Shown: in pieces, positions 2,746 through 64,000 of the stretch
How the letters are laid out: every line of letters starts with the position of its first letter
Numbering within the stretch: position 1 is the first letter of the stretch
Assembly (NCBI GenBank): GCA_018653315.1
Contig: JABIAL010000037.1
Location: 1,487 to 65,486 of the forward strand
DNA length: 64,000 bases
Source of the DNA: a bacterium
GTDB lineage: Bacteria; Patescibacteriota; Patescibacteriia; UBA1558; GWA2-36-10
Reading direction: 5' to 3'
Position numbers and translations under genes: made by a program
The notes under the pieces: generated by a model
What the model saw: the letters and a program-made list of their open reading frames with translations, nothing else
What the model was told of the DNA's origin: nothing
Databases searched by the model: none

Positions 2746-4083
2746 TTATACTTTTTTGGTGGTTTTTATTTTCAAAGATTTATCATTCATTTTACTGGCC
2801 AATCTTTTATGAACTTCTTTAACCACTTTTTTATGATCAACTGTTTCCTGCACACCGCTCTCCATGTCTCTGATTAAAATAGTGCCATCCACAAGCTCCT
2901 TTTGTCCTAAAATCAAAACATAACGAGCATTTTTTTTATTTGCCAATTCCAATTGATCTTTCAAACCATTTTTAGAAAAATCTTCAGACACTGTCAATCC
3001 TCCTTGGCGTAAATCCATAAATAATTTTAGACTCTTGCGTCGAGCTTCTATTCCTAGTTGAGCTAAATAAACATCTGGTCGCCAAACTTCTGGCAAAACA
3101 ACTTCTTTTTCTTTTATCTTGTTTATTATTCGCTCCATGCCCATGGCAAAACCAATCGCTGGAGTCTCGCGACCTCCTAATAATTTTACTAATTCATCAT
3201 AACGACCGCCGCCGCCTAAAGCTTGCAATTTTCCATCTTGATTGCTTTCAACAATCTCCCAAGTCGTTCTAGTATAATAATCTAAACCACGAACAATTTT
3301 TGGATTAAGATTATACTTTACTTCAGCTTCATCTAAATATTCTAAAACAGTAGTAAAATGTTTATTACAATCTTCACATAGATAATCTACCATCTGCGGT
3401 GCCTCCTCAGCTAATTCTTGACAACCTTTAACCTTACAATCTAAAAGACGTAATGGATTTTTAAGTAATCGCTTAGTGCAATCAACACATAAATCTTTTT
3501 TCTTATTCTTGTAATACTGAGTCAAAGCTTTAAAATATTTTGGTCGACAATGTTTATCACCAATACTATTGATCTGTACCTCGATATCTAAGCCTAAATC
3601 TCGCAAAATATTATAATTCATGGCTATTATTTGAGCATCGACAATAGGATCAGCATCACCAACAGCCTCAAAACCAAATTGCCAAAATTGTCGATAACGT
3701 CCAGCTTGTGGCTTATCATGACGAAACTGAGGTCCAATATAAAACATTTTAACTGGCTGTGGCTGGTTAAGCATGCCGTGCTCTATATAAGCACGAATAA
3801 CTCCCGGTGTACCTTCTGGCCTCAAGGATAAACGATCTCCACTTTGATCGACAAAAGAATACATTTCCTTAGATACAATATCTGTTTCTTCTCCAGTGGC
3901 TTTTTTAAATAATTGTGTAAACTCTACAATCGGCGTATCAATACGCATAAAACCATAGTCACGAGCAACTGATTCTACTCTACTCCTAACAAAATCCCAA
4001 ATATGTTGCTCTGTTGGCAAAATATCTTTCATTCCTTTTACTAATCTAATGCTAGTTTTAGCTGTTTTTTTCTTTGGTGACAT
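2746..4083 (-). CDS. hisS: Histidyl-tRNA synthetase, with a Cys-rich (putative Zn-ribbon) insertion
   Basis: Class II aaRS motifs are present (GMKDILP, RLSLRPEGT, GGGGRYDEL) and the 445-aa length fits. An unusual CxxC...C..C...CxxC insert (CVDCTKRLL...DCKVKGCQ...CEDC) is present. Confidence 0.9.
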   Translation of the reverse strand: MSPKKKTAKTSIRLVKGMKDILPTEQHIWDFVRSRVESVARDYGFMRIDTPIVEFTQLFKKATGEETDIVSKEMYSFVDQSGDRLSLRPEGTPGVIRAYIEHGMLNQPQPVKMFYIGPQFRHDKPQAGRYRQFWQFGFEAVGDADPIVDAQIIAMNYNILRDLGLDIEVQINSIGDKHCRPKYFKALTQYYKNKKKDLCVDCTKRLLKNPLRLLDCKVKGCQELAEEAPQMVDYLCEDCNKHFTTVLEYLDEAEVKYNLNPKIVRGLDYYTRTTWEIVESNQDGKLQALGGGGRYDELVKLLGGRETPAIGFAMGMERIINKIKEKEVVLPEVWRPDVYLAQLGIEARRKSLKLFMDLRQGGLTVSEDFSKNGLKDQLELANKKNARYVLILGQKELVDGTILIRDMESGVQETVDHKKVVKEVHKRLASKMNDKSLKIKTTKKV

Positions 4084-4788: not shown

Positions 4789-4914
4789 ATCTATAATAAA
4801 TTCTGATTAAACAAAATTATTATACACAAAGGACAGACTAAAAGCAAACGTTTTTAAGCTAATAAACAAGCCTTTAGAGCTTATTTAAGTAAAATAGTCA
4901 AATTGTCAATAGGA

Positions 4915-7974: not shown

Positions 7975-8008
7975 TTGCTTACAGAATGAAAACCATTGCT
8001 TACAGAAT
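7975..8008. repeat. 13-nt direct repeat TTGCTTACAGAAT x2 (7975-7987 and 7996-8008) at the 3' end of the GC-rich 186-aa ORF, just after the der stop
   Basis: Exact repeat read from the sequence. It is adjacent to an imperfect GC-rich hairpin (ggcccactctcaaagagggacc) at 7942-7963. Confidence 0.6.
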
Positions 8009-8560
8009 AGAAATTGAATCTAAAGGCAAGTAAATCTGTTGAGCAAAAGTAAATAGCGCAAACTGCTTAAGAAAGGTAAGATCAATCTCCAACTCCGAAA
8101 GTCCATCGAGGCTATCCGAATGACAGTAGCCCTGAATGTTTCCATCAACAGAGGTTTCCAAAAAACCAGCTTGCAGCAACATCATGATGTATGAGAGAGA
8201 GTCTAACACTCCTTGCTCTTCCTGAAAGACTAACCTCACACTGAAATTGTACTCTACAGCAAAATGCAACAAGGTAAAGACTTGATGTACGCCTGTACCT
8301 GTGAACTCTTCCACTAAGCTAACTTGTCTTAGCCACTTAGCAATATCTTGAGATACTGGATATTGGGTACACAGACCTGTTTGCAAAAAAATACCTAGCT
8401 CTTTAGCCGATAAATTATGCATCTTGTCAGCTTCTTCCTGATCAATCAACAGAACGATATTATCTGCTTGTGCTCTTAAACACCGCCAGCAAATACCCAT
8501 GTGCATCTTTTCATGTATAGAACACGCATCATCTGTCCATAAATGACTCATTAACTTCAT
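8000..8560 (-). CDS. Hypothetical protein of 186 aa. Its composition (about 40% GC by eye) is well above the flanking host genes. It has its own SD and a TTGACA promoter.
   Basis: A long ORF in an AT-rich background. An AGGAG lies 6 nt upstream of the ATG and a TTGACA -35 lies upstream (minus strand, plus coordinates ~8590-8637). No family was recognised by eye. A CxxC is present (GICWRCL). Confidence 0.5.
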   Translation of the reverse strand: MKLMSHLWTDDACSIHEKMHMGICWRCLRAQADNIVLLIDQEEADKMHNLSAKELGIFLQTGLCTQYPVSQDIAKWLRQVSLVEEFTGTGVHQVFTLLHFAVEYNFSVRLVFQEEQGVLDSLSYIMMLLQAGFLETSVDGNIQGYCHSDSLDGLSELEIDLTFLKQFALFTFAQQIYLPLDSISIL

Positions 8561-50009: not shown

Positions 50010-52955
50010 TTATTTCTTGTCCGCCTTTGGCGTGATTAATCCTAAAATAATCTCTTCACCATTAATCTTTTGAACCTTCTGTCTTTCTGGACTAGTATCT
50101 ACTTTTTCCAAAGATCCAGCTGAGGTGCTTTTTATAATTTCTTCTTTATACTTTTCTATTACAACTAATAAATTCTTTGATTCTGTTTGATAGGTCTCTA
50201 CTGGTTTATCTGCTGGTTTTAATCCTGATTCTTTACGTAAAACATTTATAAAACGAATCAACTCTCTTAATATTCCTTTTTCTTTTAAATCATCGGTTAA
50301 ATTGGTATCTAAAGATACTTTAAAATCATTTACTTCTGTAACAATCCAGCCATCAGCAGTTATCACATCATCTATTATCACTGACTCTACATTTAACTCA
50401 TCACTTAAAATATTCAAATAATCTTTATTTTTAGCTAAACCAGATTTATCCGCTACTTTTAAGGTAGACAAAGGCTGACGTACTTTGATGCCAGCTTCAG
50501 CTCGAGCAGCATGAACACTTTCAGCAATCTGACGAACCATATCCATTTTAGCTAAAACTTCTTGATCTATTAATTTCTGATCAGCTTTCATCCATTCTTC
50601 TAAATGAACAGATGTTTTATTATCAAACTCCTGCCAAATAATATCCGCTGTCATTGGTGTAAATGGAGCGATCAATTTAGCAAATTGTTTTAAGATGAAC
50701 GCCAAGGTCTCAATGGCTTGTTCCTTGTCTTTCAAATCATCACCTTTGAAACGATCACGACTACGTCTTAAGTACCAGGTAGATAGCTCATCAACAAAAT
50801 CAAATAAAGGACGAGTAGCTTTAACTAGATTATATTCTTTCATTGCTTCTGTCACCTCTTGATGCAATTTATAAAACTTAGCAACAATCCATTTATCTAA
50901 ATCATTATTTAATTTTGCTAATTTATCTCCGTCTATTTTAGCTTCACCTTTAAACATCTGATAAAAACTAAAAACATTTTGTAGTAAGCCAATAAAACGA
51001 CGATAAGTAGTCTGTAAATCTTTTTCTACAAAAGAAAGATTCTCAGCCAACATCACCGGAGAAGATAATAAGTACAAACGTAAGGCATCGGCGCCATATT
51101 TTTCCATTATGTCATTTGGATCTGGATAGTTTTGTAATTTCTTGGCCATTTTCTTACCATCTTCAGCTAAAACAATCCCATTAACAATAACATTATCAAA
51201 AGCTTGTGAACCTTTAATGGCGACAGCTAAAATATGCATGTAATAAAACCAAGCTCTAGTTTGATCTAAGCCTTCAGCAATAAATTTGGCTGGAAAGTTA
51301 TCATTAAACCTATCTTCGTTTTCAAATGGGTAATGCATTTGAGCATAAGGCATTGAACCAGAATCAAACCAAGTATCCAAAACATCCGGCACCCGTTTCA
51401 TAGTGCTGCCACCTGCCTGCCGGCAGGCAGGCATTGAACAAGCAAAGGTGATTTCATCAACTATATGTTTGTGTAAATCTGTTACTTTTTGACCGCTGGC
51501 TTTTTCTAAATCGGCAACCGATCCAAATACTACTTTTTCCTCACACTTATCACACTCCCAAATTGGCATCACGGAAGCCCAAAATCTTTGACGAGAAATC
51601 GACCAATCACGAGCTCCTTCTAGCCATTTTCCAAAACGGCCTTCTTTAATATGATCTGGAGTCCAATTTATATTCTTAGCGGTTTTTTGGGCCTTGTCTT
51701 TGACTTTAGTGACTGCTACAAACCAAGATGAAGTGGCATAATTCAATAATGGAGTTTCACAACGCCAACAATGAGGGTAGCTATGCTCATATTTTGTTTT
51801 ATCAAATAGCAAACCCTTAGCTGCTAAATATTTAATAATAGCTACGTCTGTAGATTGCACATCGTCTATTGGTTTGACGTGCAAACCCTTAAAATCTGTG
51901 ACTTCTTCTTTGATAATCCCATCCATGCCAAGATGTTGCACAAAAGGCAAATTTTTTTCTTTGCCTAATCTCATATCATCTTCACCAAAAGCAGGAGCGA
52001 TATGAACCACGCCCGTTCCTTCTTCAGTAGTCACAAAATCAGCCGTTACAATCTGCCAGCCATTATTTACATTTTCTGAATCTTTATCTTTAGAGTAATA
52101 ATCAAAAAGTGGCGTATATTTCTGAGCAATTAATTTCTTACCTTTAAATTCTTCGACGATTTTATACTCACCAAATTTATCTGCAAATTCTTCTAATAAT
52201 TCTTTGGCTAAGATAAATTTTTCTTTTTCTGATTCTACTTTTATGTAATCAATATTTTCTCCGACAGCCAAAGCAACATTACCAATCAAAGTCCAAGGAG
52301 TTGTCGTCCAAGCCAAAACATATGTGCCTGGCTCATCAACTAACTCAAACTTAGCAGTCAGTGATAAATCTTTAATATCTTTGTAGCCTTCAGAAACCTC
52401 TTGTTGAGATAAAGTAGTTTCACAACGAGGACAAATATGCATCGAGCGATAATCTTGATAAATCAAATCTTTATCCCAAAGCTCTTTGAATACCCACCAA
52501 ACAGATTCCATATATTCTAAATCCATCGTACGATAGGCATTTTTCATATCTGCCCAACGTCCCATGCGAGTGACAGTTTTCTCCCATTCAGCAACATAGC
52601 TCAAAACTTTTGAACGACAAAGTTCATTAAACTTAGCCACGCCCATTTCTTCAATCGCTTGTTTAGATTTGGAACCAAGTTCTTTTTCGACAATATTTTC
52701 CACTGGCAAACCATGACAATCCCAACCCCATTTTCTCTCCACTCTATATCCTTGCATAGTCCAAAAACGAGGGACCACGTCTTTCATGATATTACCTACT
52801 AAATGTCCATAATGCGGAGTTCCAGTAGCAAATGGAGGCCCATCATAAAAAAGATAATCACCATTAGGCGCTGGTTTATCTAAAGATTTCTGAAAAGTTT
52901 GATCACTTTCCCAAAAATCCAATATTTCTTTTTCCCGATCTTTGAAATTAGTCAT
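50010..52955 (-). CDS. ileS: Isoleucyl-tRNA synthetase
   Basis: HIGH variant (PHYGHLVGN), KMSKS variant (KMAKK), editing domain, 981 aa. It contains an in-frame copy of the 20-nt GC-rich palindrome at 51412-51431, encoding PACRQAG in a Cys knuckle. Confidence 0.95.
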   Translation of the reverse strand: MTNFKDREKEILDFWESDQTFQKSLDKPAPNGDYLFYDGPPFATGTPHYGHLVGNIMKDVVPRFWTMQGYRVERKWGWDCHGLPVENIVEKELGSKSKQAIEEMGVAKFNELCRSKVLSYVAEWEKTVTRMGRWADMKNAYRTMDLEYMESVWWVFKELWDKDLIYQDYRSMHICPRCETTLSQQEVSEGYKDIKDLSLTAKFELVDEPGTYVLAWTTTPWTLIGNVALAVGENIDYIKVESEKEKFILAKELLEEFADKFGEYKIVEEFKGKKLIAQKYTPLFDYYSKDKDSENVNNGWQIVTADFVTTEEGTGVVHIAPAFGEDDMRLGKEKNLPFVQHLGMDGIIKEEVTDFKGLHVKPIDDVQSTDVAIIKYLAAKGLLFDKTKYEHSYPHCWRCETPLLNYATSSWFVAVTKVKDKAQKTAKNINWTPDHIKEGRFGKWLEGARDWSISRQRFWASVMPIWECDKCEEKVVFGSVADLEKASGQKVTDLHKHIVDEITFACSMPACRQAGGSTMKRVPDVLDTWFDSGSMPYAQMHYPFENEDRFNDNFPAKFIAEGLDQTRAWFYYMHILAVAIKGSQAFDNVIVNGIVLAEDGKKMAKKLQNYPDPNDIMEKYGADALRLYLLSSPVMLAENLSFVEKDLQTTYRRFIGLLQNVFSFYQMFKGEAKIDGDKLAKLNNDLDKWIVAKFYKLHQEVTEAMKEYNLVKATRPLFDFVDELSTWYLRRSRDRFKGDDLKDKEQAIETLAFILKQFAKLIAPFTPMTADIIWQEFDNKTSVHLEEWMKADQKLIDQEVLAKMDMVRQIAESVHAARAEAGIKVRQPLSTLKVADKSGLAKNKDYLNILSDELNVESVIIDDVITADGWIVTEVNDFKVSLDTNLTDDLKEKGILRELIRFINVLRKESGLKPADKPVETYQTESKNLLVVIEKYKEEIIKSTSAGSLEKVDTSPERQKVQKINGEEIILGLITPKADKK
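51412..51431. repeat. Perfect 20-nt palindrome CCTGCCTGCCGGCAGGCAGG, copy 1, inside the ileS CDS
   Basis: Identical to the 54359-54378 copy and nearly identical to 53202-53222. Confidence 0.75.
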
Positions 52956-53201
52956 ATTTACAGTATTTCTGATTAATTAGTAAGATTTATTCTAGCCTAA
53001 AAGCATATATTTTACAATATTTACCTTTCGGCTACGCTCAAGGTGATTAAAAGTCAAAAAAATATGGAATATAAGCTATGCCACCAATTTTTTTTGGTCT
53101 TTTTACATAACCTGGGCTGGTAAACCCTATGTTTACACTTGGCTTTAACAAAAATTTTGTCTAGTTTCTTATGCATATTTTATTTAGCTTGTTGTTTACT
53201 C

Positions 53202-53222
53202 CCTGCCTACCGGACAGGCAGG
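53202..53222. repeat. Palindrome variant CCTGCCTACCGGACAGGCAGG, copy 2, intergenic at the ileS-proximal edge of the MerR cassette
   Basis: 7-bp arms identical to the other copies. It is followed by more GC-rich hairpins (GCCTTC-AGAGCC-GAAGGC at 53244-53261). Confidence 0.7.
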
Positions 53223-53280
53223 CGCCTCCCGTTCAGGGCCTAAGCCTTCAGAGCCGAAGGCTGACGGATAATATTTAAAA

Positions 53281-53316
53281 CCCTCAAGCTCCTAAGCATG
53301 AAAAAGGAGCTCGAAG
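53281..53316 (-). terminator. Intrinsic terminator for the MerR-like gene (minus strand: cccttcgagctcc-loop-ggagcttgaggg followed by ttttaaatatt)
   Basis: A 12-13 bp imperfect stem immediately 3' of the stop at 53320, with a U-tract. Confidence 0.55.
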
Positions 53317-53319
53317 GGA

Positions 53320-53574
53320 TTAAAACAATTGTTTAATCTCCTTAACAGATAATCTTTTTTTGCTTTGGAGATATTCTATTTTTTGTAGCGTGCGAATAGC
53401 TTTATCTGGACTATAAAGACGATAGCCGCCTTGAGTGCGCCCATCTTCTTTTAATAAACCTTCGCGAGTATAAAAATTAATAGCCGACGGCAAAACATCG
53501 AACATCGTCGCCAATGTACCGATTTTTACTAATTTGCTACTCGCTTGTTTGTTTCCAGTTTTTATTTTCCGCAT
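53320..53574 (-). CDS. Small MerR-family HTH DNA-binding protein (DNA-binding domain only, 84 aa)
   Basis: VKIGTLATMFDVLPSAINFYTREGLL...GGYRLYS matches the MerR HTH and wing pattern. No effector domain is present. Confidence 0.7.
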   Translation of the reverse strand: MRKIKTGNKQASSKLVKIGTLATMFDVLPSAINFYTREGLLKEDGRTQGGYRLYSPDKAIRTLQKIEYLQSKKRLSVKEIKQLF

Positions 53575-53672
53575 GCTTCTTGCTTGTGATTATAAGCAAT
53601 ATTTATTATAAACCATAAAGTAAGAAGTGTAAAGTAATTAGTAATAGTTTATAGTTAATATAAAAAAATACA

Positions 53673-53724
53673 CCTGTCGTTACAATTCGAACGACAAGTG
53701 TGCGATTAAAAGTCTTTAAGACTT
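53673..53724. promoter_or_regulatory. A stem-loop (CCTGTCGTT-ACAATTCG-AACGACAAG, 53673-53698) and a 15-nt perfect palindrome AAGTCTTTAAGACTT (53710-53724), both between the 143-aa gene and the MerR gene
   Basis: Inverted repeats read directly. The position suggests an intergenic terminator or attenuator plus a candidate operator for the downstream HTH gene. Confidence 0.4.
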
Positions 53725-53727
53725 GAT

Positions 53728-54159
53728 TTACTTAGGAACACCGCCAACCCAATAGCCACCAGGAACGCCTTCTTTGCTACGATCAGCAGCTATACGATGC
53801 TCACCGTTCTTGTTATGAAACGAGGCATAGCACCAATGCCCTACATCTTTCCAATGAACGCCATTAGGATGATCGTCAGCAAAATTAGGATCATTAATAT
53901 TAACTTGTATTTGAGCATAAGGATCGTGGATTAAACCATGCTCATTCAACACACCCTCCAACTCATCTTCACTACAGCGACCAACCACCTCGAGGAAAGC
54001 AACTCTGACAAACTCACCTTCGCCTCTAGGTATAGACCCAATAACGGCGTCGGATATACATTGTTGTTCTCGTCCAATAGACTTAAACAGTTGTTGTGGC
54101 GTCTTGTTACGATCTACGCGAACATCAACGTAGATCAAACCTTGATTTGTTGTTGGCAT
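53728..54159 (-). CDS. Hypothetical protein of 143 aa, His-rich. Composition is foreign (about 44% GC by eye). First gene of the 2-gene cassette, upstream of the MerR-like gene.
   Basis: Long ORF with an SD-like AAGGGG 7 nt upstream and a TTGACA-17-TATATT promoter. No family recognised (…DDHPNGVHWKDVGHWCYASFHNKNGEHRIA…). Confidence 0.5.
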   Translation of the reverse strand: MPTTNQGLIYVDVRVDRNKTPQQLFKSIGREQQCISDAVIGSIPRGEGEFVRVAFLEVVGRCSEDELEGVLNEHGLIHDPYAQIQVNINDPNFADDHPNGVHWKDVGHWCYASFHNKNGEHRIAADRSKEGVPGGYWVGGVPK

Positions 54160-54181
54160 GATAATGCCCCTTTTTCTTTAG

Positions 54182-54203
54182 TATTTACTTCCGTAAGTAA
54201 ATA
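54182..54203 (-). promoter_or_regulatory. Perfect 9-4-9 inverted repeat TATTTACTT-CCGT-AAGTAAATA in the 5' leader of the 143-aa gene. Candidate operator or leader hairpin.
   Basis: It lies between the promoter (54233-54261) and the SD/ATG (54159). Confidence 0.5.
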
Positions 54204-54232
54204 GATGGATGTAACGAACCTAACAATATGGT

Positions 54233-54261
54233 AATATAGCATATATACGCTATTTTGTCAA
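54233..54261 (-). promoter_or_regulatory. Canonical sigma70 promoter TTGACA-17-TATATT (minus strand) driving the 143-aa / MerR-like cassette
   Basis: rc of 54256-54261 is TTGACA and rc of 54233-54238 is TATATT, with a 17-nt spacer. Confidence 0.5.
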
Positions 54262-54295
54262 TAAGCAAACAAAAAGCCCCAGCCTAATTAACCCC

Positions 54296-54357
54296 TCCAG
54301 CCTCCCCTTAACAGGGGAGGTTTTTTAGATTAAAAAAGTCCCCCTGTTAAGGGGGAT
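54296..54357. terminator. Pair of mirrored GC-rich hairpins (CCTCCCC-TTAACA-GGGGAGG then TTTTTT, and TCCCCC-TGTTAA-GGGGGA preceded by AAAAAA), forming a bidirectional terminator
   Basis: The two stems are reverse complements of each other around an A/T-rich centre. They terminate the minus-strand 193-aa gene and insulate the cassette. Confidence 0.6.
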
Positions 54358-54358
54358 T

Positions 54359-54378
54359 CCTGCCTGCCGGCAGGCAGG
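54359..54378. repeat. Perfect 20-nt palindrome CCTGCCTGCCGGCAGGCAGG, copy 3, at the dprA-proximal edge of the cassette
   Basis: Identical to the ileS-internal copy. Confidence 0.75.
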
Positions 54379-54403
54379 CAGGGGGTTTAAATTTTAATTT
54401 AAC

Positions 54404-54916
54404 TTACAAACTTTGTTGCCGAGTTATTTCCTTTAATACCTCCGAATCATCGCCAACTTCTTCAATGGAAGTAATCTTACTACGATTGATTTGTAACATT
54501 CCTTGCGGCTGATGCAATTCTGCTCCCCGCTTGATCAAAATCGGCACTTCTATTACTTGATCTTGCGCTCCTTCTTCAGTAGCCGGAACTAATTGTTGCT
54601 CGGTTTGAATATAATAAACTTCATCCAAGTAAACATTAAGCGCATCCTCTTTGATTACTTTAGCAAAATATACTTGTCCATTGTCTAAAAAGACAGCCTT
54701 ATATTTATATTCTTTGTTTAAATTACCTTGAGATAAAAATACTAAAGCTCCTGACAAAACAATAATAACTATAATCAAAGTAAGTGTGATCCATATTTTA
54801 GATCGACCACTTCTTGGTTTTCTGGCTACAAATTGCTCAAAATCTTCTAATTCTTCTGCTACTTTAACTGGTCTGGCGGTAGCTGCTCTTGGCTTTGTTG
54901 TTTTTTTGACTGGCAT
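54404..54916 (-). CDS. Hypothetical membrane-anchored protein (N-terminal basic tail, one TM helix, extracytoplasmic domain)
   Basis: The start is probably MPVKKTTKPRA at 54916, with TM helix IWITLTLIIVIIVLSGALVFL. Composition is host-like. Confidence 0.45.
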   Translation of the reverse strand: MPVKKTTKPRAATARPVKVAEELEDFEQFVARKPRSGRSKIWITLTLIIVIIVLSGALVFLSQGNLNKEYKYKAVFLDNGQVYFAKVIKEDALNVYLDEVYYIQTEQQLVPATEEGAQDQVIEVPILIKRGAELHQPQGMLQINRSKITSIEEVGDDSEVLKEITRQQSL

Positions 54917-55046
54917 AATAAATAAAATTAAATATTTTTTAGTACATTGATTATATATCAAGCTAGAGATTTTGCCAAGAGACAATTTTACAAATCTTCC
55001 CTTGTATATTATGATAATTAATAATTAAATATAAAGAAGAAAAGCG

Positions 55047-60140: not shown

Positions 60141-62342
60141 ATGCCAGATTTAATCATCGTTGAGTCCCCTACTAAAGCTAAAACTATTAAAGGTTTTTTA
60201 GGAAAGGACTATAAAGTAGAATCAAGTTTCGGCCATGTTCGTGACTTACCTAAAAGCAAATTAGGAGTAGATGTTGAAAATAACTTCGCTCCATCTTATG
60301 AGGTGCCTACTAAAGCAAAAAAACGAGTTAGTGAACTAAAAGCTTTAGCTAAAAAAGCTGACATAGTTTATTTCGCAACTGATGAAGATCGAGAAGGAGA
60401 AGCAATTAGCTGGCACTTACAAGAGCTACTAAATATTCCTGTGGAAAAACAACGCCGTATTGCTTTCCATGAAATTACTAAGAAGGCTATTTTGAATGCC
60501 TTGGAAAATCCTAGAAAACTAGATGACAACTTAGTTGATGCCCAACAAGCTCGCCGAGTTTTAGACAGATTAGTTGGTTATAAACTTTCTCCATTATTAT
60601 GGAAAAAAGTAACTAAAGGATTATCAGCCGGACGCGTACAATCTGCAGCCTTAAGATTGATTGTTGAACGTGAAGAAGAACGTAACAACTTTAAAAAAGA
60701 AGAATACTGGACAGTAGAAGGAGAGGCTGCCAAAGATAAGCCAAACTTTAAAATTTCCTTATGGCAAAAAGATAACAAATCTATCTCAAAATTTGATCTA
60801 GATGAAAAGCTTGCTAATCAAGCAGTCACGGATATTAAACCAGCAAAATTAATCATCAATAAAGTTGACGCTAAAGAACATACAAAGTCTCCTTTAGCTC
60901 CTTTTACTACATCTACTTTACAACAAGAAGCAAATAGACGTTTTGGCTATTCGGCTAAACAAACCATGATGGTAGCCCAACAACTATACGAGGGTTTAAG
61001 CTTAGGCGAAAAAGGAAACGCCGGTCTAATCACATACATGCGTACTGATTCCAAAAATTTGTCAGCTGAATTTGTCAGTGATGCTTTGGATTATGTAAAA
61101 AATAAATTAGGAGAAAAATATATTGTAGCTGGTGGTCGCACTTTTAAAAAGAAAAGTAAACTAGCTCAAGAAGCTCATGAGGCTATTCGACCAACTGATG
61201 TCCAACTAGTGCCAGAAGAAATCAAAGAACATTTAGATAGCAAACAATTCAAAGTTTATCAATTGATTTGGCAACGAGCCGTTGCTTCACAAATGTCAGA
61301 TGCCATTACTGAAACTACTAGTGTTGGCATTGAAGCCAAAGACACCATCTGGACTCTAAAAACCGTTGGCACAGTAACTAAATTTGCTGGTTGGCGAGCC
61401 GTTTACCAATCTAATGGTGAAGACAATGAATTACCGACTTTGGCTATTGGTGATGAGCTAGAACTGAAAACTCTAGATGCTTTACAACATTTTACTTCTC
61501 CTCCAGCCCAATATTCAGAAGCCGGATTAGTAAAAGAAATGGAAAAATTGGGCATTGGTCGCCCATCTACTTATGCGCCAACTATTGCAACTTTAGTTAG
61601 TCGCCAATATGTAGATAAAGTAGATAAAAGATTAGCACCAACTGAAATTGCTATTATTGTTATTAAATTATTAGTCGAACATTTTTCTGATATTGTTGAT
61701 TATAATTTTACTGCTGAAATGGAAGATGATTTAGATCGTATTGCTGACGGTAAAAAAACTTGGCAACCAATTATCAAAGAATTTTACGAACCTTTTATCA
61801 CTAACTTAGAAAAGAAAGAAAAAGAATTAGATAAGAAAAAAATCACCGAAACTGCTACCGATGAGAAATGTGAGAAATGTGATAGTCCAATGGTGATTAA
61901 ACTTGGTCGTTTTGGAAAATTTTTGGCTTGTTCGAACTACCCAGATTGCAAGAGCACTAAACCAATTAATGAAAAAGGTGAAATCGAAGAACCAGAAACA
62001 ACCGATGAAAAATGTGAAACTTGTGGGGCTGACATGATGTTTAAACATGGTCGCTTTGGAAAATTTTTGGCTTGCTCAAATTATCCAAAATGTAAAACAA
62101 CTAAACAAGTCAATAAAGAAGTTGGCATCAAATGTACAAAATGCGACAAAGGACAAATGGTAGAAAAACGTAGTAAGCGTGGCAAAACATTTTTCAGTTG
62201 TGACCAATATCCAAAATGTGAACATGCTGTTTGGACTAAACCAACTGGTGAATTCTGTCCGGAATGTAAACAACTTTTATTATTTGCTGCTAAAGATAAA
62301 GTAAAGTGTGAAGAATGTGACTTCACTAAAGACCAAGAATAA
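60141..62342 (+). CDS. topA: DNA topoisomerase I with three C-terminal C4 zinc ribbons
   Basis: TOPRIM (LIIVESPTKAK, DEDREGE), the catalytic Tyr region (GLITYMRTDS), and repeated CxxC...CxxC zinc fingers. Confidence 0.95.
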   Translation: MPDLIIVESPTKAKTIKGFLGKDYKVESSFGHVRDLPKSKLGVDVENNFAPSYEVPTKAKKRVSELKALAKKADIVYFATDEDREGEAISWHLQELLNIPVEKQRRIAFHEITKKAILNALENPRKLDDNLVDAQQARRVLDRLVGYKLSPLLWKKVTKGLSAGRVQSAALRLIVEREEERNNFKKEEYWTVEGEAAKDKPNFKISLWQKDNKSISKFDLDEKLANQAVTDIKPAKLIINKVDAKEHTKSPLAPFTTSTLQQEANRRFGYSAKQTMMVAQQLYEGLSLGEKGNAGLITYMRTDSKNLSAEFVSDALDYVKNKLGEKYIVAGGRTFKKKSKLAQEAHEAIRPTDVQLVPEEIKEHLDSKQFKVYQLIWQRAVASQMSDAITETTSVGIEAKDTIWTLKTVGTVTKFAGWRAVYQSNGEDNELPTLAIGDELELKTLDALQHFTSPPAQYSEAGLVKEMEKLGIGRPSTYAPTIATLVSRQYVDKVDKRLAPTEIAIIVIKLLVEHFSDIVDYNFTAEMEDDLDRIADGKKTWQPIIKEFYEPFITNLEKKEKELDKKKITETATDEKCEKCDSPMVIKLGRFGKFLACSNYPDCKSTKPINEKGEIEEPETTDEKCETCGADMMFKHGRFGKFLACSNYPKCKTTKQVNKEVGIKCTKCDKGQMVEKRSKRGKTFFSCDQYPKCEHAVWTKPTGEFCPECKQLLLFAAKDKVKCEECDFTKDQE

Positions 62343-62352
62343 CCCTTCGGCG

Positions 62353-62375
62353 ACTCGGCTGAGTTCGCCGTGGCC
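62353..62375. repeat. GC-rich 23-nt repeat ACTCGGCTGAGTTCGCCGTGGCC, copy 2. Intergenic, at the topA-proximal edge of the two-ORF cassette.
   Basis: Matches 14438-14460 at 21 of 23 positions. It is embedded in the hairpin CGGCGA...TCGCCG. Confidence 0.7.
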
Positions 62376-62410
62376 TGATGCTCGGGGTAAATAAATTTGA
62401 GTAAAAAAAG

Positions 62411-62441
62411 AAAGCCCTGTCTCACTGAGACGGGGCTTTTT
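62411..62441. terminator. Bidirectional intrinsic terminator AAAGCCCTGTCTC-ACT-GAGACGGGGCTTTTT shared by topA (+) and the cassette operon (-)
   Basis: 11-13 bp GC-rich stem with T/A runs on both sides. Confidence 0.75.
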
Positions 62442-62456
62442 CATTTCCTTGTGCCG

Positions 62457-62681
62457 TTATGGCACCCTCAATCCACTGACGGGAAGAGGCCAAGCAGGTT
62501 CACCCGGCATTCGAACGACCATGTGTTGAGTCACGGGCCTGAACTCGATACAAAAACCCACATTGCCATCTTCATCGATAACACTGGCACTACGACTAGC
62601 AAGGTCGCGCAACTGTTCTTGAGAACCCTGCTCCAGACAAAACCCGGAAGTCATCTGATCAACCCCTGAAGTGTAAGACAT
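62457..62681 (-). CDS. Hypothetical 74-aa protein (gene B of the GC-rich cassette): MSYTSGVDQMTSGFCLEQGSQEQLRDLASRSASVIDEDGNVGFCIEFRPV...
   Basis: ATG at 62681 with AAGGAA 6 nt upstream. Composition is about 50% GC by eye. The ORF track shows a longer frame but no better start. No family recognised. Confidence 0.45.
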   Translation of the reverse strand: MSYTSGVDQMTSGFCLEQGSQEQLRDLASRSASVIDEDGNVGFCIEFRPVTQHMVVRMPGEPAWPLPVSGLRVP

Positions 62682-62697
62682 GTGATTCCTTTCTATT

Positions 62698-62721
62698 CTG
62701 TGGTGAAAACTGTGGTGAAAA
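62698..62721. repeat. Tandem 12-nt direct repeat CTGTGGTGAAAA x2 (minus strand TTTTCACCACAG x2) between cassette genes A and B
   Basis: Perfect tandem copy immediately after the stop of gene A. Candidate protein-binding or translational-coupling element. Confidence 0.6.
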
Positions 62722-62952
62722 TCAGACTGGATAATCTGGGTCATCATCCGGAAAAGCCAACTGGTCGGCTTTGACTTCAGAGATACCTGAGGTAGGCGAA
62801 ACGAACAAATAGGTATTGTACGCTGTCTTACCAATTATTCGACCTTGTGATCCTTCATTCAACATCAACATGCCATACTTCATGGCCCAACTGGCTTGAG
62901 TATCAGGGCTACCCAACACTGCACTCTCTGACAATCTCAACATTTCTGTCAT
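62722..62952 (-). CDS. Hypothetical 76-aa protein (gene A of the GC-rich cassette): MTEMLRLSESAVLGSPDTQASWAMKYGMLMLNEGSQGRIIGKTAYNTYLFVSPTSGISEVKADQLAFPDDDPDYPV
   Basis: Strong SD GCAGGAGGAGTT immediately 5' of the ATG and a consensus promoter upstream. Composition is about 45% GC by eye. No family recognised. Confidence 0.5.
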   Translation of the reverse strand: MTEMLRLSESAVLGSPDTQASWAMKYGMLMLNEGSQGRIIGKTAYNTYLFVSPTSGISEVKADQLAFPDDDPDYPV

Positions 62953-62995
62953 AACTCCTCCTGCTTGTTAGTTGTAAGGTTCATTAATGTCTGCT

Positions 62996-63024
62996 ATATT
63001 AGCATAAAATGCTAAAAAAGTCAA
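62996..63024 (-). promoter_or_regulatory. Consensus sigma70 promoter TTGACT-17-TAATAT (minus strand) driving the cassette operon of genes A and B
   Basis: rc of 63019-63024 is TTGACT and rc of 62996-63001 is TAATAT, with a 17-nt spacer. The SD GGAGG lies at 62955-62960. Confidence 0.55.
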
Positions 63025-63090
63025 GAGGCATGTTATTTTCTTGCTATTTTCTAAGGAAAACATTAAAATAAACATACTCATAATAATTCT

Positions 63091-64000
63091 ATGATTACTT
63101 TTGAAGATTTAAAAAAAGTCCTATTAACCGATTATGCTGATGAAAATATAAATATTATCATCAAGGCTTTTCATTTTGCCTCAGAAGCTCATCGTGGCCA
63201 AAAACGTCGTACTGGTGAAGATTATATCTACCACTCTATTGCTACTGCTCACACCTTGGCTAAGATGAAAATGGACGTGCCAACTATTGCCGCTGGTTTA
63301 TTACATGATGTACCAGAAGATACAGATTTTACTCTAGAAGATGTTAAAAATGTTTTTGGTAAAGAAATAGCCGGTTTAGTAAAAGGCATTACAAAATTAA
63401 GTACTCTTAAATATCGTGGCCTAGAACGTTATGCTGAAAATTTACGCAAAATGTTTTTGGCTATGTCCAAAGACTTACGAGTAATTATTATAAAACTAGC
63501 CGACCGTCTGCATAACATGCAGACTCTAGAAGGTGTTCGTCCGGAAAAACGTTTGCGTATTGCTCAAGAAACTTTAGAAATATTTGCACCGATTGCCAAT
63601 CGCTTAGGCATGTTTGAAATAAAAACTAAACTAGAAGATTTAGCTTTTATTTATGTTTATCCTGACGAATATAATTGGGTAAAAAATTTAGTTCAAGACC
63701 GTTTGAAAACTGAAACTAAATACATTGAAAAAATTAAAAAAATAGCCCAACGAGATTTAGCCAAACATAATGTAAGTTACATTCAAATAAGAGGACGAAT
63801 AAAAAGCTTATATAGTTTATACCACAAATTGTTACGCAAAGGAAAAGATCTAAATAAAGTATATGATTTAATTGCCTTGCGTATTATTGTGCCAGATGTA
63901 ACGGATTGTTATAGTGTCTTAGGCATCATTCATAAACGCTGGACGCCCCTCAAGGGACGAGTTAAAGATTATATTGCTCAACCAAAACCAAATGGCTATC
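63091..64000 (+). CDS. rel: Bifunctional (p)ppGpp synthetase/hydrolase Rel (RelA/SpoT homologue). 5' portion only, continuing beyond the window.
   Basis: HD hydrolase domain (HRGQKRRTGEDYIYH...LLHDVPEDT) followed by the start of the synthetase domain (DLIALRIIV...RVKDYIAQPKPNGY). Confidence 0.9.
   Translation, partial: MITFEDLKKVLLTDYADENINIIIKAFHFASEAHRGQKRRTGEDYIYHSIATAHTLAKMKMDVPTIAAGLLHDVPEDTDFTLEDVKNVFGKEIAGLVKGITKLSTLKYRGLERYAENLRKMFLAMSKDLRVIIIKLADRLHNMQTLEGVRPEKRLRIAQETLEIFAPIANRLGMFEIKTKLEDLAFIYVYPDEYNWVKNLVQDRLKTETKYIEKIKKIAQRDLAKHNVSYIQIRGRIKSLYSLYHKLLRKGKDLNKVYDLIALRIIVPDVTDCYSVLGIIHKRWTPLKGRVKDYIAQPKPNGY

Follow-up and report, generated by a model that had tools for sequence, protein, structure and literature searches.

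A short-form member of a Parcubacterial DGR variable-protein family, apparently frozen, forms a single-gene insertion next to an ancestral merR-type gene

The region between ileS and dprA in the analysed stretch of DNA (64,000 nucleotides, here called the window) is best read, with a probability of about 0.7, as two independent transcription units: an ancestral merR-type gene and an insertion of ~0.6 kb that carries a frozen lectin-like gene of the diversity-generating retroelement (DGR) type. Both genes and their expression signals lie on the minus strand. The inserted gene (53728..54159), characterized by its ORF, HMMER searches and AF2 modelling, encodes a 143-aa protein that is a short-form, stand-alone member of a Parcubacterial family of DGR variable proteins with a predicted C-type-lectin-like (CLec) fold. 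The preliminary description of this DNA had treated both genes as one cassette inserted between ileS and dprA; this holds for the 143-aa gene, but not for merR, which is present in every relative.

The 143-aa protein at first appeared to be an orphan, since a word-indexed protein search yielded its own cluster and nothing else. This was overturned by an exhaustive phmmer/HMMER search, which identified 674 relatives (representative clusters), 264 of them at E<=1e-10. The phmmer matches (E=3.6e-28 to 1e-13) extended over residues 8-143. Most relatives are 200-215 aa long and are matched in their C-terminal 135 aa; those with a named source belong to Paceibacterota, Ryanbacteria, Zambryskibacteria and the Parcubacteria group. 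The earlier statement that the protein matches no family can thus be replaced by an assignment, as most of the long-form relatives are DGR variable proteins. No match was obtained in Pfam, PHROGs, NCBIfam or PADLOC, in a sequence-profile search of the PDB, or, at a significant level, when the model was compared by Foldseek with PDB and BFVD. Searches of phage, plasmid and IMG/VR collections likewise revealed no homologs.

The invariant and nearly invariant residues of the family (R17, R30, P44, L76, D79, N87, F93, A94, P98, N99, W103, F114 and G140) are all retained in the 143-aa protein. The N-terminal helical domain of ~65 aa that is typical of the long forms is absent; the ORF, which is maximal at 143 aa, starts at the CLec domain. 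About one in five of the listed relatives is similarly short. The AlphaFold model proposed as a check was obtained with high confidence (AF2, pLDDT 93.7; a single-sequence AF2 run gave pLDDT 44) and showed a C-type-lectin-like fold in which the variable segment occupies the C-terminus. DGR variable proteins share the CLec fold as their conserved scaffold (PMC5006420, PMC6328139). By analogy with these proteins, the 143-aa protein would bind a ligand, and its last ~35 residues would be the counterpart of their hypervariable ligand-binding surface.

The long-form members of the family are variable (target) proteins of DGRs. Genes for bAvd and RVT_1 were found next to the family genes in three cases (L020/L021, L022/L023 and L144); in L019, whose contig ends there, only bAvd was found. 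In the VR/TR repeats of the relatives, which are 92-101 nt long, 65 of 65 mismatches fall at TR adenines. Among 80 further metagenome loci, 36 of the 45 non-redundant long forms (~80%) are accompanied by a TR, Avd or RT, compared with none of three short forms, or none of four when the window is counted (Fisher p=0.013 and 0.003, respectively). The layout VP - TR - Avd(-) - RT(+) recurs in the relatives, with the TR ~320-400 nt past the VP stop codon. Independent short forms (142-152 aa) are also seen repeatedly in other genomes, again without a nearby DGR. As a separate observation, locus L146 carries a family gene but neither Avd nor RT; flanking this gene are a 41-nt direct repeat, corresponding to the 3′ end of the neighbouring map gene, and a repeated 27-nt palindrome.

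The family can be compared with the C-type lectin DGR targets Mtd of Bordetella phage BPP-1, TvpA of Treponema denticola, archaeal AvpA and Thermus TaqVP. Like these, the sequence homologs of the 143-aa protein (E as low as 4e-28) are genuine DGR targets: they have a VR at the C-terminus, a TR that mismatches only at adenines, bAvd and an RT. The solved proteins, however, show no detectable sequence similarity to the 143-aa protein, and the copy in the window differs from such targets in three respects: TR, Avd and RT are absent from the 64 kb, the VR shows no variation across nine other assemblies beyond one SNP, and the N-terminal domain of its own family is missing. The family also resembles the cellular DGRs restricted to CPR bacteria ('DGR clade 2', Roux et al., 2021, PMC8144416; Wu et al., 2018, PMC5758913). 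Its named members are likewise Parcubacteria/Paceibacterota, it is likewise absent from phage, plasmid and IMG/VR collections, and it shares with them the recurrent gene layout given above. In contrast to these systems, the window carries only the target-type gene and no retroelement, and the gene is of the short form, which was never DGR-linked in this data set.

The extent of the insertion was defined by comparison with five related lineages within L010-L018 (ileS 65-86% amino acid identity). In all five, the order is membrane gene, ~140-240 nt, merR, ileS; the 143-aa gene is missing and the synteny is otherwise identical. The synteny check therefore supported only part of what had been proposed, as merR is kept at the same position and the 143-aa gene is the only extra one. 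Alignment with L010, L014 and L015 delimits a lineage-specific single-gene insertion that reaches from promoter to terminator (53665..54261, approximate). At its left end, homology to the relatives restarts at TATATTAACTATAAAC, ~53664, the boundary being ambiguous inside the terminator region. Within the insertion lie a near-consensus promoter, an inverted repeat in the leader, an SD-like sequence, the ORF for the 143-aa protein and a terminator. The flanks of the locus are formed by the housekeeping genes ileS, recO, dprA and topA. When the non-coding ends of the insert were compared with all other family loci by blastn, no conserved cassette ends were found.

The GC enrichment noted by eye (about 44%) was borne out by the per-gene computation, which gave a GC content of 0.440 for the 143-aa gene compared with a mean of 0.342 (sd 0.034) for the genes of the window (z ~2.9). 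The increase at third codon positions was modest (GC3 0.333 vs 0.250, z ~1.7). Since the family is GC-richer than its host everywhere, with a GC3 usually of 0.58-0.85 vs 0.25 in the host, the GC excess is in part a trait of the family, and since GC3 is only modestly raised, composition alone does not prove recent transfer. Together, the data support the 143-aa gene as an insertion that is specific to the lineage, atypical in composition and equipped with its own expression signals. We infer a horizontal origin of the gene, which might have been acquired as a self-sufficient single-gene unit.

Several signals listed in the preliminary description could be located around the 143-aa gene. Its promoter, TTGACA-17-TATATT (54261..54233), has 11 of 12 consensus matches and a TG extension and lies inside the block that is absent from the relatives; the gene is probably expressed from it, judging from the sequence, and would then give rise to a ligand-binding module whose specificity is fixed. 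The leader does contain the perfect 9-4-9 inverted repeat TATTTACTT-N4-AAGTAAATA (54182..54203). A sequence scan of the window, including the promoter of merR, revealed no second perfect copy of it, and the leader folds no better than shuffled sequences (z=-0.25). The SD-like AAGGGG (54167..54172), 7 nt 5′ of the ATG, is indeed unusual for the host: a motif of this kind is present in only 5 of 52 window genes, and 47 have none. Both elements described between the two genes were also found, namely a 15-nt palindrome with 7-bp arms, AAGTCTTTAAGACTT, after the stop codon (53710-53724) and a 12-bp hairpin followed by a U-run (T-run in the DNA; 53670-53701, -20.1 kcal/mol, z=-3.7) that resembles an intrinsic terminator. 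By sequence and folding, these form the end of the inserted unit (53660..53724). The hairpin fits an intrinsic terminator equally well as a DGR element, and an IMH needs a TR to define it. Rfam searches of the whole window gave no match that reached the gathering thresholds, and in 52900-54450 and 62300-63100 the matches were only at chance level; the idea of a T-box or another RNA leader upstream of ileS was therefore dropped.

The VR-equivalent C-terminal region of the 143-aa protein (residues 109-143, 53731..53835), defined by gap-free alignment to the VR/TR of L019, L020, L022 and L144, is apparently frozen. In tblastn searches of the 64 kb, two family-linked RTs gave nothing better than E=2.2 and three Avd sequences nothing below E=1, and blastn and pattern searches for a TR did not reveal the 3′ end of the gene at a second site. 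Nine other assemblies differ from the window by one SNP in 2.2 kb, at 53817, and all nine share the same VR, as judged from assembly consensus sequences. With no TR, Avd or RT nearby and a sequence that hardly varies between samples, the gene is probably not diversified at present. A DGR is presumably also absent beyond the window, and the 143-aa protein would apparently be a horizontally acquired, frozen ligand-binding protein of the DGR type.

A more dynamic interpretation is that the 143-aa gene is a live remote target whose C-terminal codons are rewritten in trans by a DGR (RT, Avd, TR) elsewhere in the genome. Such targets exist in other DGRs (PMC5758913, PMC8144416), and several features of the gene are in line with this. 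The sole SNP among the ten sequences falls in the VR-equivalent region, at the first base of codon 115 (CAT/TAT, His/Tyr), which aligns with the first variable AAC codon of the homologous TRs, and each of the two codons is obtainable by adenine mutagenesis of an AAT codon. The codons at variable positions are mostly NNY, consistent with AAY ancestry, and a hairpin follows the 3′ end of the gene, as in known DGR targets. However, apart from the missing retroelement, the VR consensus is identical among the nine other assemblies, and a single retrohoming event usually alters many adenine-templated positions together and not one. The VR of the window has also diverged at framework positions that a TR would keep constant, and the short forms elsewhere also lack a nearby DGR. 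In addition, CPR DGRs are reported to possess, for the most part, a single adjacent target, and targets more than 100 kb away were reported only in another lineage (PMC5758913). A remote target is therefore considered improbable.

The absence of the N-terminal domain found in most relatives, the lack of a nearby DGR, the drifted framework positions of the VR and a GC3 that lies between the usual value of the family and that of the host could also be explained if the gene were a decaying relic of a lost DGR, that is, an N-terminally truncated remnant without present function. Yet the ORF is intact, its promoter is near consensus, and both an SD-like motif and a terminator accompany it; the conserved family residues are all kept, and the AF2 model is confident over the entire chain. 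Independent short forms of this size are also present in other genomes. Moreover, the relatives show no DGR trace at the site, so that the gene would have reached it in its present form and not have decayed there. We regard such a relic as unlikely, and the intact, frozen gene as the preferred reading.

The second transcription unit is the merR-type gene (53320..53574), which Pfam matches and synteny identify as an ancestral gene outside the insertion. The MerR-type assignment of this 84-aa ORF could be substantiated by Pfam (MerR_1 PF13411, E=1.3e-11; PF00376, E=5.5e-10; residues 17-83). The protein is a minimal winged-HTH protein: it ends at residue 84, and the C-terminal coiled-coil dimerisation helix and the effector-binding region are absent. 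It covers only positions 1-67 of MerR-type models that are 124-141 long, and its scores are far under the equivalog cut-offs. Homologs with 62-92% identity are found in L010-L018 in the same order, membrane gene - merR - ileS - recO, and the gene would thus have been located between the membrane-protein gene and ileS since before the divergence of the compared lineages. Its own promoter, TTTACA-17-TATAAT (53605..53633), is conserved in all relatives, and the strong terminator described after the gene corresponds to a hairpin at 53274..53324 that is conserved in most of them.

Minimal members of the MerR superfamily without an effector domain include BldC, the N-terminal domain of TnrA/GlnR, and HspR. 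The 84-aa protein likewise matches only the N-terminal winged HTH of MerR models (residues 16-83); it has a PDB sequence match to an 86-aa glutamine synthetase repressor and a weak NCBIfam match to the BldC family, but all of its scores are far below the equivalog cut-offs. The gene has a conserved position upstream of a 40-aa small ORF and ileS, and to our knowledge no such arrangement has been described for BldC/TnrA/GlnR/HspR-type proteins.

The two genes had been described as one operon, which does not agree with the terminator-like hairpin and the second promoter (53633..53605) that lie between them. Because this terminator and the conserved promoter separate the genes, and because a tblastn search of the 80 other metagenome loci that encode the 143-aa family revealed no merR homolog, merR is independent of the 143-aa gene, and the MerR-type protein is no regulator dedicated to it. 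A two-gene accessory module with MerR regulating the 143-aa gene via the palindromes, similar to acr-aca, toxin-regulator or anti-phage systems and mobile between GC-rich palindromes, is largely refuted by the synteny and highly improbable. In its favor are the gene order, with a small ORF in front of a small HTH gene, the palindromes found in the leader and in the intergenic region, and a weak PADLOC match of the HTH protein to mad1 (E=4.8e-7), but merR occurs with the same promoter and without the 143-aa gene in all five related lineages, the leader repeat is not found at its promoter, the 143-aa protein has neither a PADLOC nor a PHROG match nor relatives in phage, plasmid or IMG/VR collections, and a third copy of the palindrome lies inside ileS. 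Likewise, the co-transcription and phyletic linkage of an HTH gene with an upstream small gene, by which acr-aca operons are recognized, is not observed here, and instead of residing on a mobile element the locus is flanked by housekeeping genes.

The palindromes that had been thought to bracket the unit are present at 53202-53222 and 54359-54378. The first, degenerate copy, CCTGCCTACCGGACAGGCAGG, is part of a GC-rich structured block of ~60 nt (53195..53262) that is absent from the relatives. The second, exact copy, CCTGCCTGCCGGCAGGCAGG, belongs to a cluster of hairpins (54296..54384) where the membrane-protein gene has its terminator region. By sequence and folding, this cluster also contains two mirrored CCCC(T)TAACAGGGG hairpins (54301-54356), in agreement with the mirrored double hairpin described earlier. 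At the position of this cluster, four of the five relatives have just one GC-rich hairpin, which differs from those of the window, and in L017 the hairpin is AT-rich. A third, exact 20-nt copy is located in frame inside ileS (51412..51431), where it encodes PACRQAG and results in a net gain of 7 aa in a Cys knuckle (C-SMPA-C-RQAG-G in the window vs C-K-C-G in the relatives). Because of this copy, the palindromes are not the ends of a cassette, and the proposed bracketing does not hold.

The motif thus occurs in two exact and one degenerate copy within 3 kb and is absent at all three sites in the relatives. As a diagnostic mobile element it was rejected, since the exact 20-mer also occurs in 35 stretches of unrelated viral contigs, most of them GC-rich, where its flanks are unrelated too, and is therefore no specific marker. 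The palindrome may arise recurrently rather than move; it may also be a minimal mobile palindromic element with three landings in 3 kb, once in frame in ileS. Like REP-like palindromic repeats, it is multi-copy, here with one copy in frame in an essential gene, but the unit is only 20 nt long and no associated transposase was seen. Rickettsia palindromic elements are a precedent for the in-frame landing of palindromic repeats in coding sequence.

With this analysis a false lead is removed, as the locus is no undescribed effector-regulator or anti-defence system. In addition, 674 representative clusters of 'hypothetical' Parcubacteria proteins, for which no Pfam model exists, can now be assigned as DGR variable proteins with a C-type lectin fold, and short members without the N-terminal domain occur without a retroelement. 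Very tentatively, the short forms could represent a distinct class of 'frozen' CLec variable proteins that spread among Parcubacteria as single-gene mini-cassettes reaching from promoter to terminator or, alternatively, the first remote, trans-diversified CPR DGR targets. If they are indeed stable binders derived from hypervariable ancestors, the short forms would record specificities that became fixed in episymbiotic bacteria. This would be of some relevance to how CPR cells recognize their partners, and would extend known biology rather than add a new category to it.

The 143-aa ORF at 53728-54159 (minus strand) had been described as matching no family, and no match to its product was found in the curated libraries that were searched. 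A word-indexed search returned solely its own 99% cluster, invariably in the same genomic context. An exhaustive HMMER search, however, identified 674 related representative clusters with E ≤ 1e-3, of which 264 reach E ≤ 1e-10. The relatives whose source is named are annotated as hypothetical proteins and come from Paceibacterota, Ryanbacteria, Zambryskibacteria and the Parcubacteria group; most members are 200-215 aa long, and the match to the 143-aa protein covers their C-terminal 135 aa. The relatives have no Pfam family, and no sequence relatives of the family were found in the PDB. AlphaFold with the family alignment gave a confident model of the 143-aa protein (pLDDT 93.7, pTM 0.88) with a C-type-lectin-like fold. 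The protein of the window is a short form, beginning at the lectin domain, and this fold is the scaffold known to carry the variable regions (VR) of diversity-generating retroelements (DGRs) (PMC5006420, PMC6328139).

At three loci (L020/L021, L022/L023 and L144) the family gene is followed by the accessory variability determinant bAvd on the opposite strand and an RVT_1 reverse transcriptase (RT); at L019, bAvd follows the gene and the contig then ends. The final 92-101 nt of the gene recur 410-470 nt downstream in L019, L020, L022 and L144, and all mismatches between the repeats fall at adenines of the downstream copy (20/20, 16/16, 12/12 and 17/17 in the four loci). Repeat pairs with adenine mismatches in a bAvd/RT context are the signature of a DGR, whose target gene contains the VR and whose template repeat (TR) carries AAC/AAT codons. 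In a wider sample of 80 metagenome loci, TR, Avd or RT was present at the expected positions relative to the family gene (TR ∼+320-400, Avd ∼+450, RT ∼+850) in 36 of 45 non-redundant long-form genes, which carry an additional N-terminal domain, and in clear TR/VR pairs 584 of 648 mismatches were at TR adenines. Cell-encoded DGRs restricted to CPR are a described clade (PMC8144416). It is concluded that the 143-aa gene adds a new short, stand-alone member to a known kind of protein, the Parcubacterial variable proteins of DGR type with a C-type-lectin fold.

The preliminary description had placed this gene in one two-gene operon with the 84-aa MerR-type ORF (merR; 53320-53574, minus strand), whose product matches MerR_1 (E = 1.3e-11) and MerR (E = 5.5e-10) within its N-terminal winged HTH only. 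The pair is flanked by ileS (50010-52955, minus strand) and by a membrane-protein gene (54404-54985), beyond which dprA lies on the plus strand. Every non-coding motif listed for the locus was present: the promoter of the 143-aa gene, TTGACA-17-TATATT (54261..54233; 11/12 matches, TG extension), a perfect 9-4-9 repeat (54182-54203), a 15-nt palindrome (53710-53724), a terminator after merR, mirrored hairpins (54301-54356) and GC-rich palindromes at 53202 and 54359. On motifs the description was largely right; on the operon structure and the extent of the insertion it was wrong. The 143-aa gene is followed by a 12-bp hairpin with a U-run (53670-53701) that scores as an intrinsic terminator, beyond which a second promoter, TTTACA-17-TATAAT (53633..53605), precedes merR.

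Homologues of the MerR-type protein with 62-92% identity were traced to contigs of five related lineages, whose ileS products are 65-86% identical to that of the window. All five show the order dprA <- / membrane gene -> merR -> ileS -> recO, with only ∼140-240 nt and no additional gene between the membrane gene and merR. All five have nearly the same merR promoter region (…ATTACTTTACACTTTTTACTTTATGGTTTATAAT…); the merR terminator is likewise conserved, as is a small ORF of 40 aa upstream of ileS. Homology with the relatives picks up again at TATATTAACTATAAAC (∼53664); the lineage-specific block therefore spans ∼53665-54261 and contains the 143-aa gene alone, from promoter to terminator. merR is an ancestral neighbour outside any cassette, and the reading as a new effector-regulator system is not supported. 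The merR promoter region (window 53595-53665) is almost invariant across lineages (L010-L017), and two direct TTACTTTA repeats lie between and around its -35 and -10 elements, which suggests that the minimal MerR-like protein is autoregulated through them. The 40-aa ORF (MHKKLDKIFVKAKCKHRVYQPRLCKKTKKNWWH...; 53054-53176, minus strand), flanked by the terminator of merR and the promoter of ileS, encodes a very basic product without a Pfam match, whose amino-acid sequence is conserved in 5/5 related lineages; it is probably a real small protein.

The GC-rich palindromes had been taken as boundaries of the cassette. CCTGCCTGCCGGCAGGCAGG occurs exactly at 54359 and 51412, with a degenerate copy at 53202, and, of the six perfect GC-rich hairpins in the 64 kb (stem ≥ 7, GC ≥ 0.6), five lie within 51.4-54.4 kb, three being copies of this one palindrome. 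Because the palindromes bracket an ancestral gene together with the insert, and a third, exact copy lies outside, within ileS, they are not cassette ends. The copy at 54359 falls within the membrane gene's terminator region, which carries one different GC-rich hairpin in four of five relatives and an AT-rich hairpin in L017; the copy at 53202 belongs to a structured block of 60 nt that has been inserted beyond the merR terminator. The exact 20-nt copy at 51412-51431 is in frame within ileS and encodes PACRQAG (net +7 aa), changing the Cys-x-Cys knuckle from C-K-C-G to C-S-M-P-A-C-R-Q-A-G-G with the second Cys retained; the five related lineages have C-K/N-C-G at this site. This insertion is found in every same-species assembly spanning the site, and the two palindrome copies matched by the search pattern are found in every same-species contig covering them. 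The palindrome is absent from the loci of the relatives, where the corresponding sites carry other sequence. As a specific marker it was rejected, since 35 stretches of unrelated viral contigs, most of them GC-rich, contain the identical 20-mer between unrelated flanks. In three such IMG/VR contigs (L148, L171, L178) it is located at the presumed variable arm or D-loop of tRNA-like sequences.

The GC enrichment noted for the 143-aa gene (∼44%) was confirmed at 0.440, compared with 0.342 on average (sd 0.034) across 56 ORFs of the window. Codon position 1 (0.611) accounts for most of the excess, and GC3 is 0.333 vs 0.250 (sd 0.050). The gene is preceded by the SD-like AAGGGG; such motifs were found upstream of only 5 of 52 window genes, four of the five being compositionally atypical small genes. 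The host appears largely SD-independent, so that an SD motif may be a sign of acquisition. Five relatives lack the 143-aa gene yet have its flanks, which makes a gain in the window lineage the parsimonious reading; a foreign source would agree with the SD-like motif and the raised GC. In all of L019, L020, L022, L144, L145 and L146 the family gene is much GC-richer than the host locus (0.59 vs 0.37 in L022; GC3 up to 0.85), so that the signal is partly a family trait, which could reflect adenine avoidance or frequent cassette transfer; with a GC3 of 0.33, the window copy seems partly adapted to the host. Searches of phage, plasmid and IMG/VR collections yielded no homologues. Two further units were noted. 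At 62457-62952 (minus strand), two small ORFs of 76 and 74 aa (∼48% GC) with strong SD motifs (AGGAGG, AAGGA), a promoter-like sequence of their own, a terminator and no Pfam or Rfam matches lie between a RelA/SpoT-type gene and topA, which are directly adjacent in L017; this looks like a second lineage-specific mini-cassette. A 186-aa ORF at 8000-8560 (minus strand) shows the highest GC3 (0.39) among chromosomal-looking genes and no Pfam match; it carries a promoter-like sequence of its own, an SD motif (AGGAG) and a terminator, and may be another foreign single-gene unit.

In L146 (GCA_039739875.1), a long-form family gene that has neither Avd nor RT lies between two repeat pairs. One is a direct repeat of 41 nt (98% identity; 3701-3741 / 4803-4843), a duplicate of the 3' end of the upstream map (methionine aminopeptidase) gene; the other is a repeated 27-nt palindrome (∼3897 / 4778). 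It looks like a site-specific single-gene insertion, and single-gene insertions of the family would therefore occur outside the window too. Flanking repeats of this type, or conserved ends, were not found around the window insert. DGR cassettes of the family were also observed beside ileS and recO, ordered VP-Avd-RT-ileS-recO in L020 and L193 (VP, variable protein) and ileS-VP-Avd-RT-recO in L144. The neighbourhood of the cassettes in L020 (6001-12045), L144 (1-7037) and L193 is that of the window insert and, in these small numbers, may be a preferred site of the family.

Neither RT nor Avd was detected in the 64-kb window by tblastn with those of the relatives, and no second copy of the 3' end of the 143-aa gene was found there by blastn or degenerate patterns. 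Over the whole locus, nine other assemblies, which come from different samples, show 99.9% identity and differ from the window at only one base in 2.2 kb. The difference, at 53817, turns codon 115 from TAT into CAT; homologous TRs have their first variable AAC codon at the aligned position, and the substitution is of the type made by adenine mutagenesis. It is, however, a single transition, whereas a retrohoming event normally alters many positions at one time. DGR targets >100 kb away have been found in another lineage only (PMC5758913), and continued action of a distant DGR is regarded as a minority possibility. Several framework residues that are constant in TRs are changed in the window copy (e.g. 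W to K, W to V, F to V and R to P). At the other short forms (L183/L184, L212, L215), no TR, Avd or RT was found where the flanks permit the test, giving DGR parts in 0/3 short forms (0/4 with the window) vs 36/45 long forms (Fisher p = 0.013 and 0.003, respectively). The window without RT, Avd or TR, the near-invariant VR, the changed framework and the DGR-less short forms together argue for a stand-alone gene, and the 143-aa gene is read here as encoding a lectin-fold, predicted ligand-binding protein that is at present undiversified.
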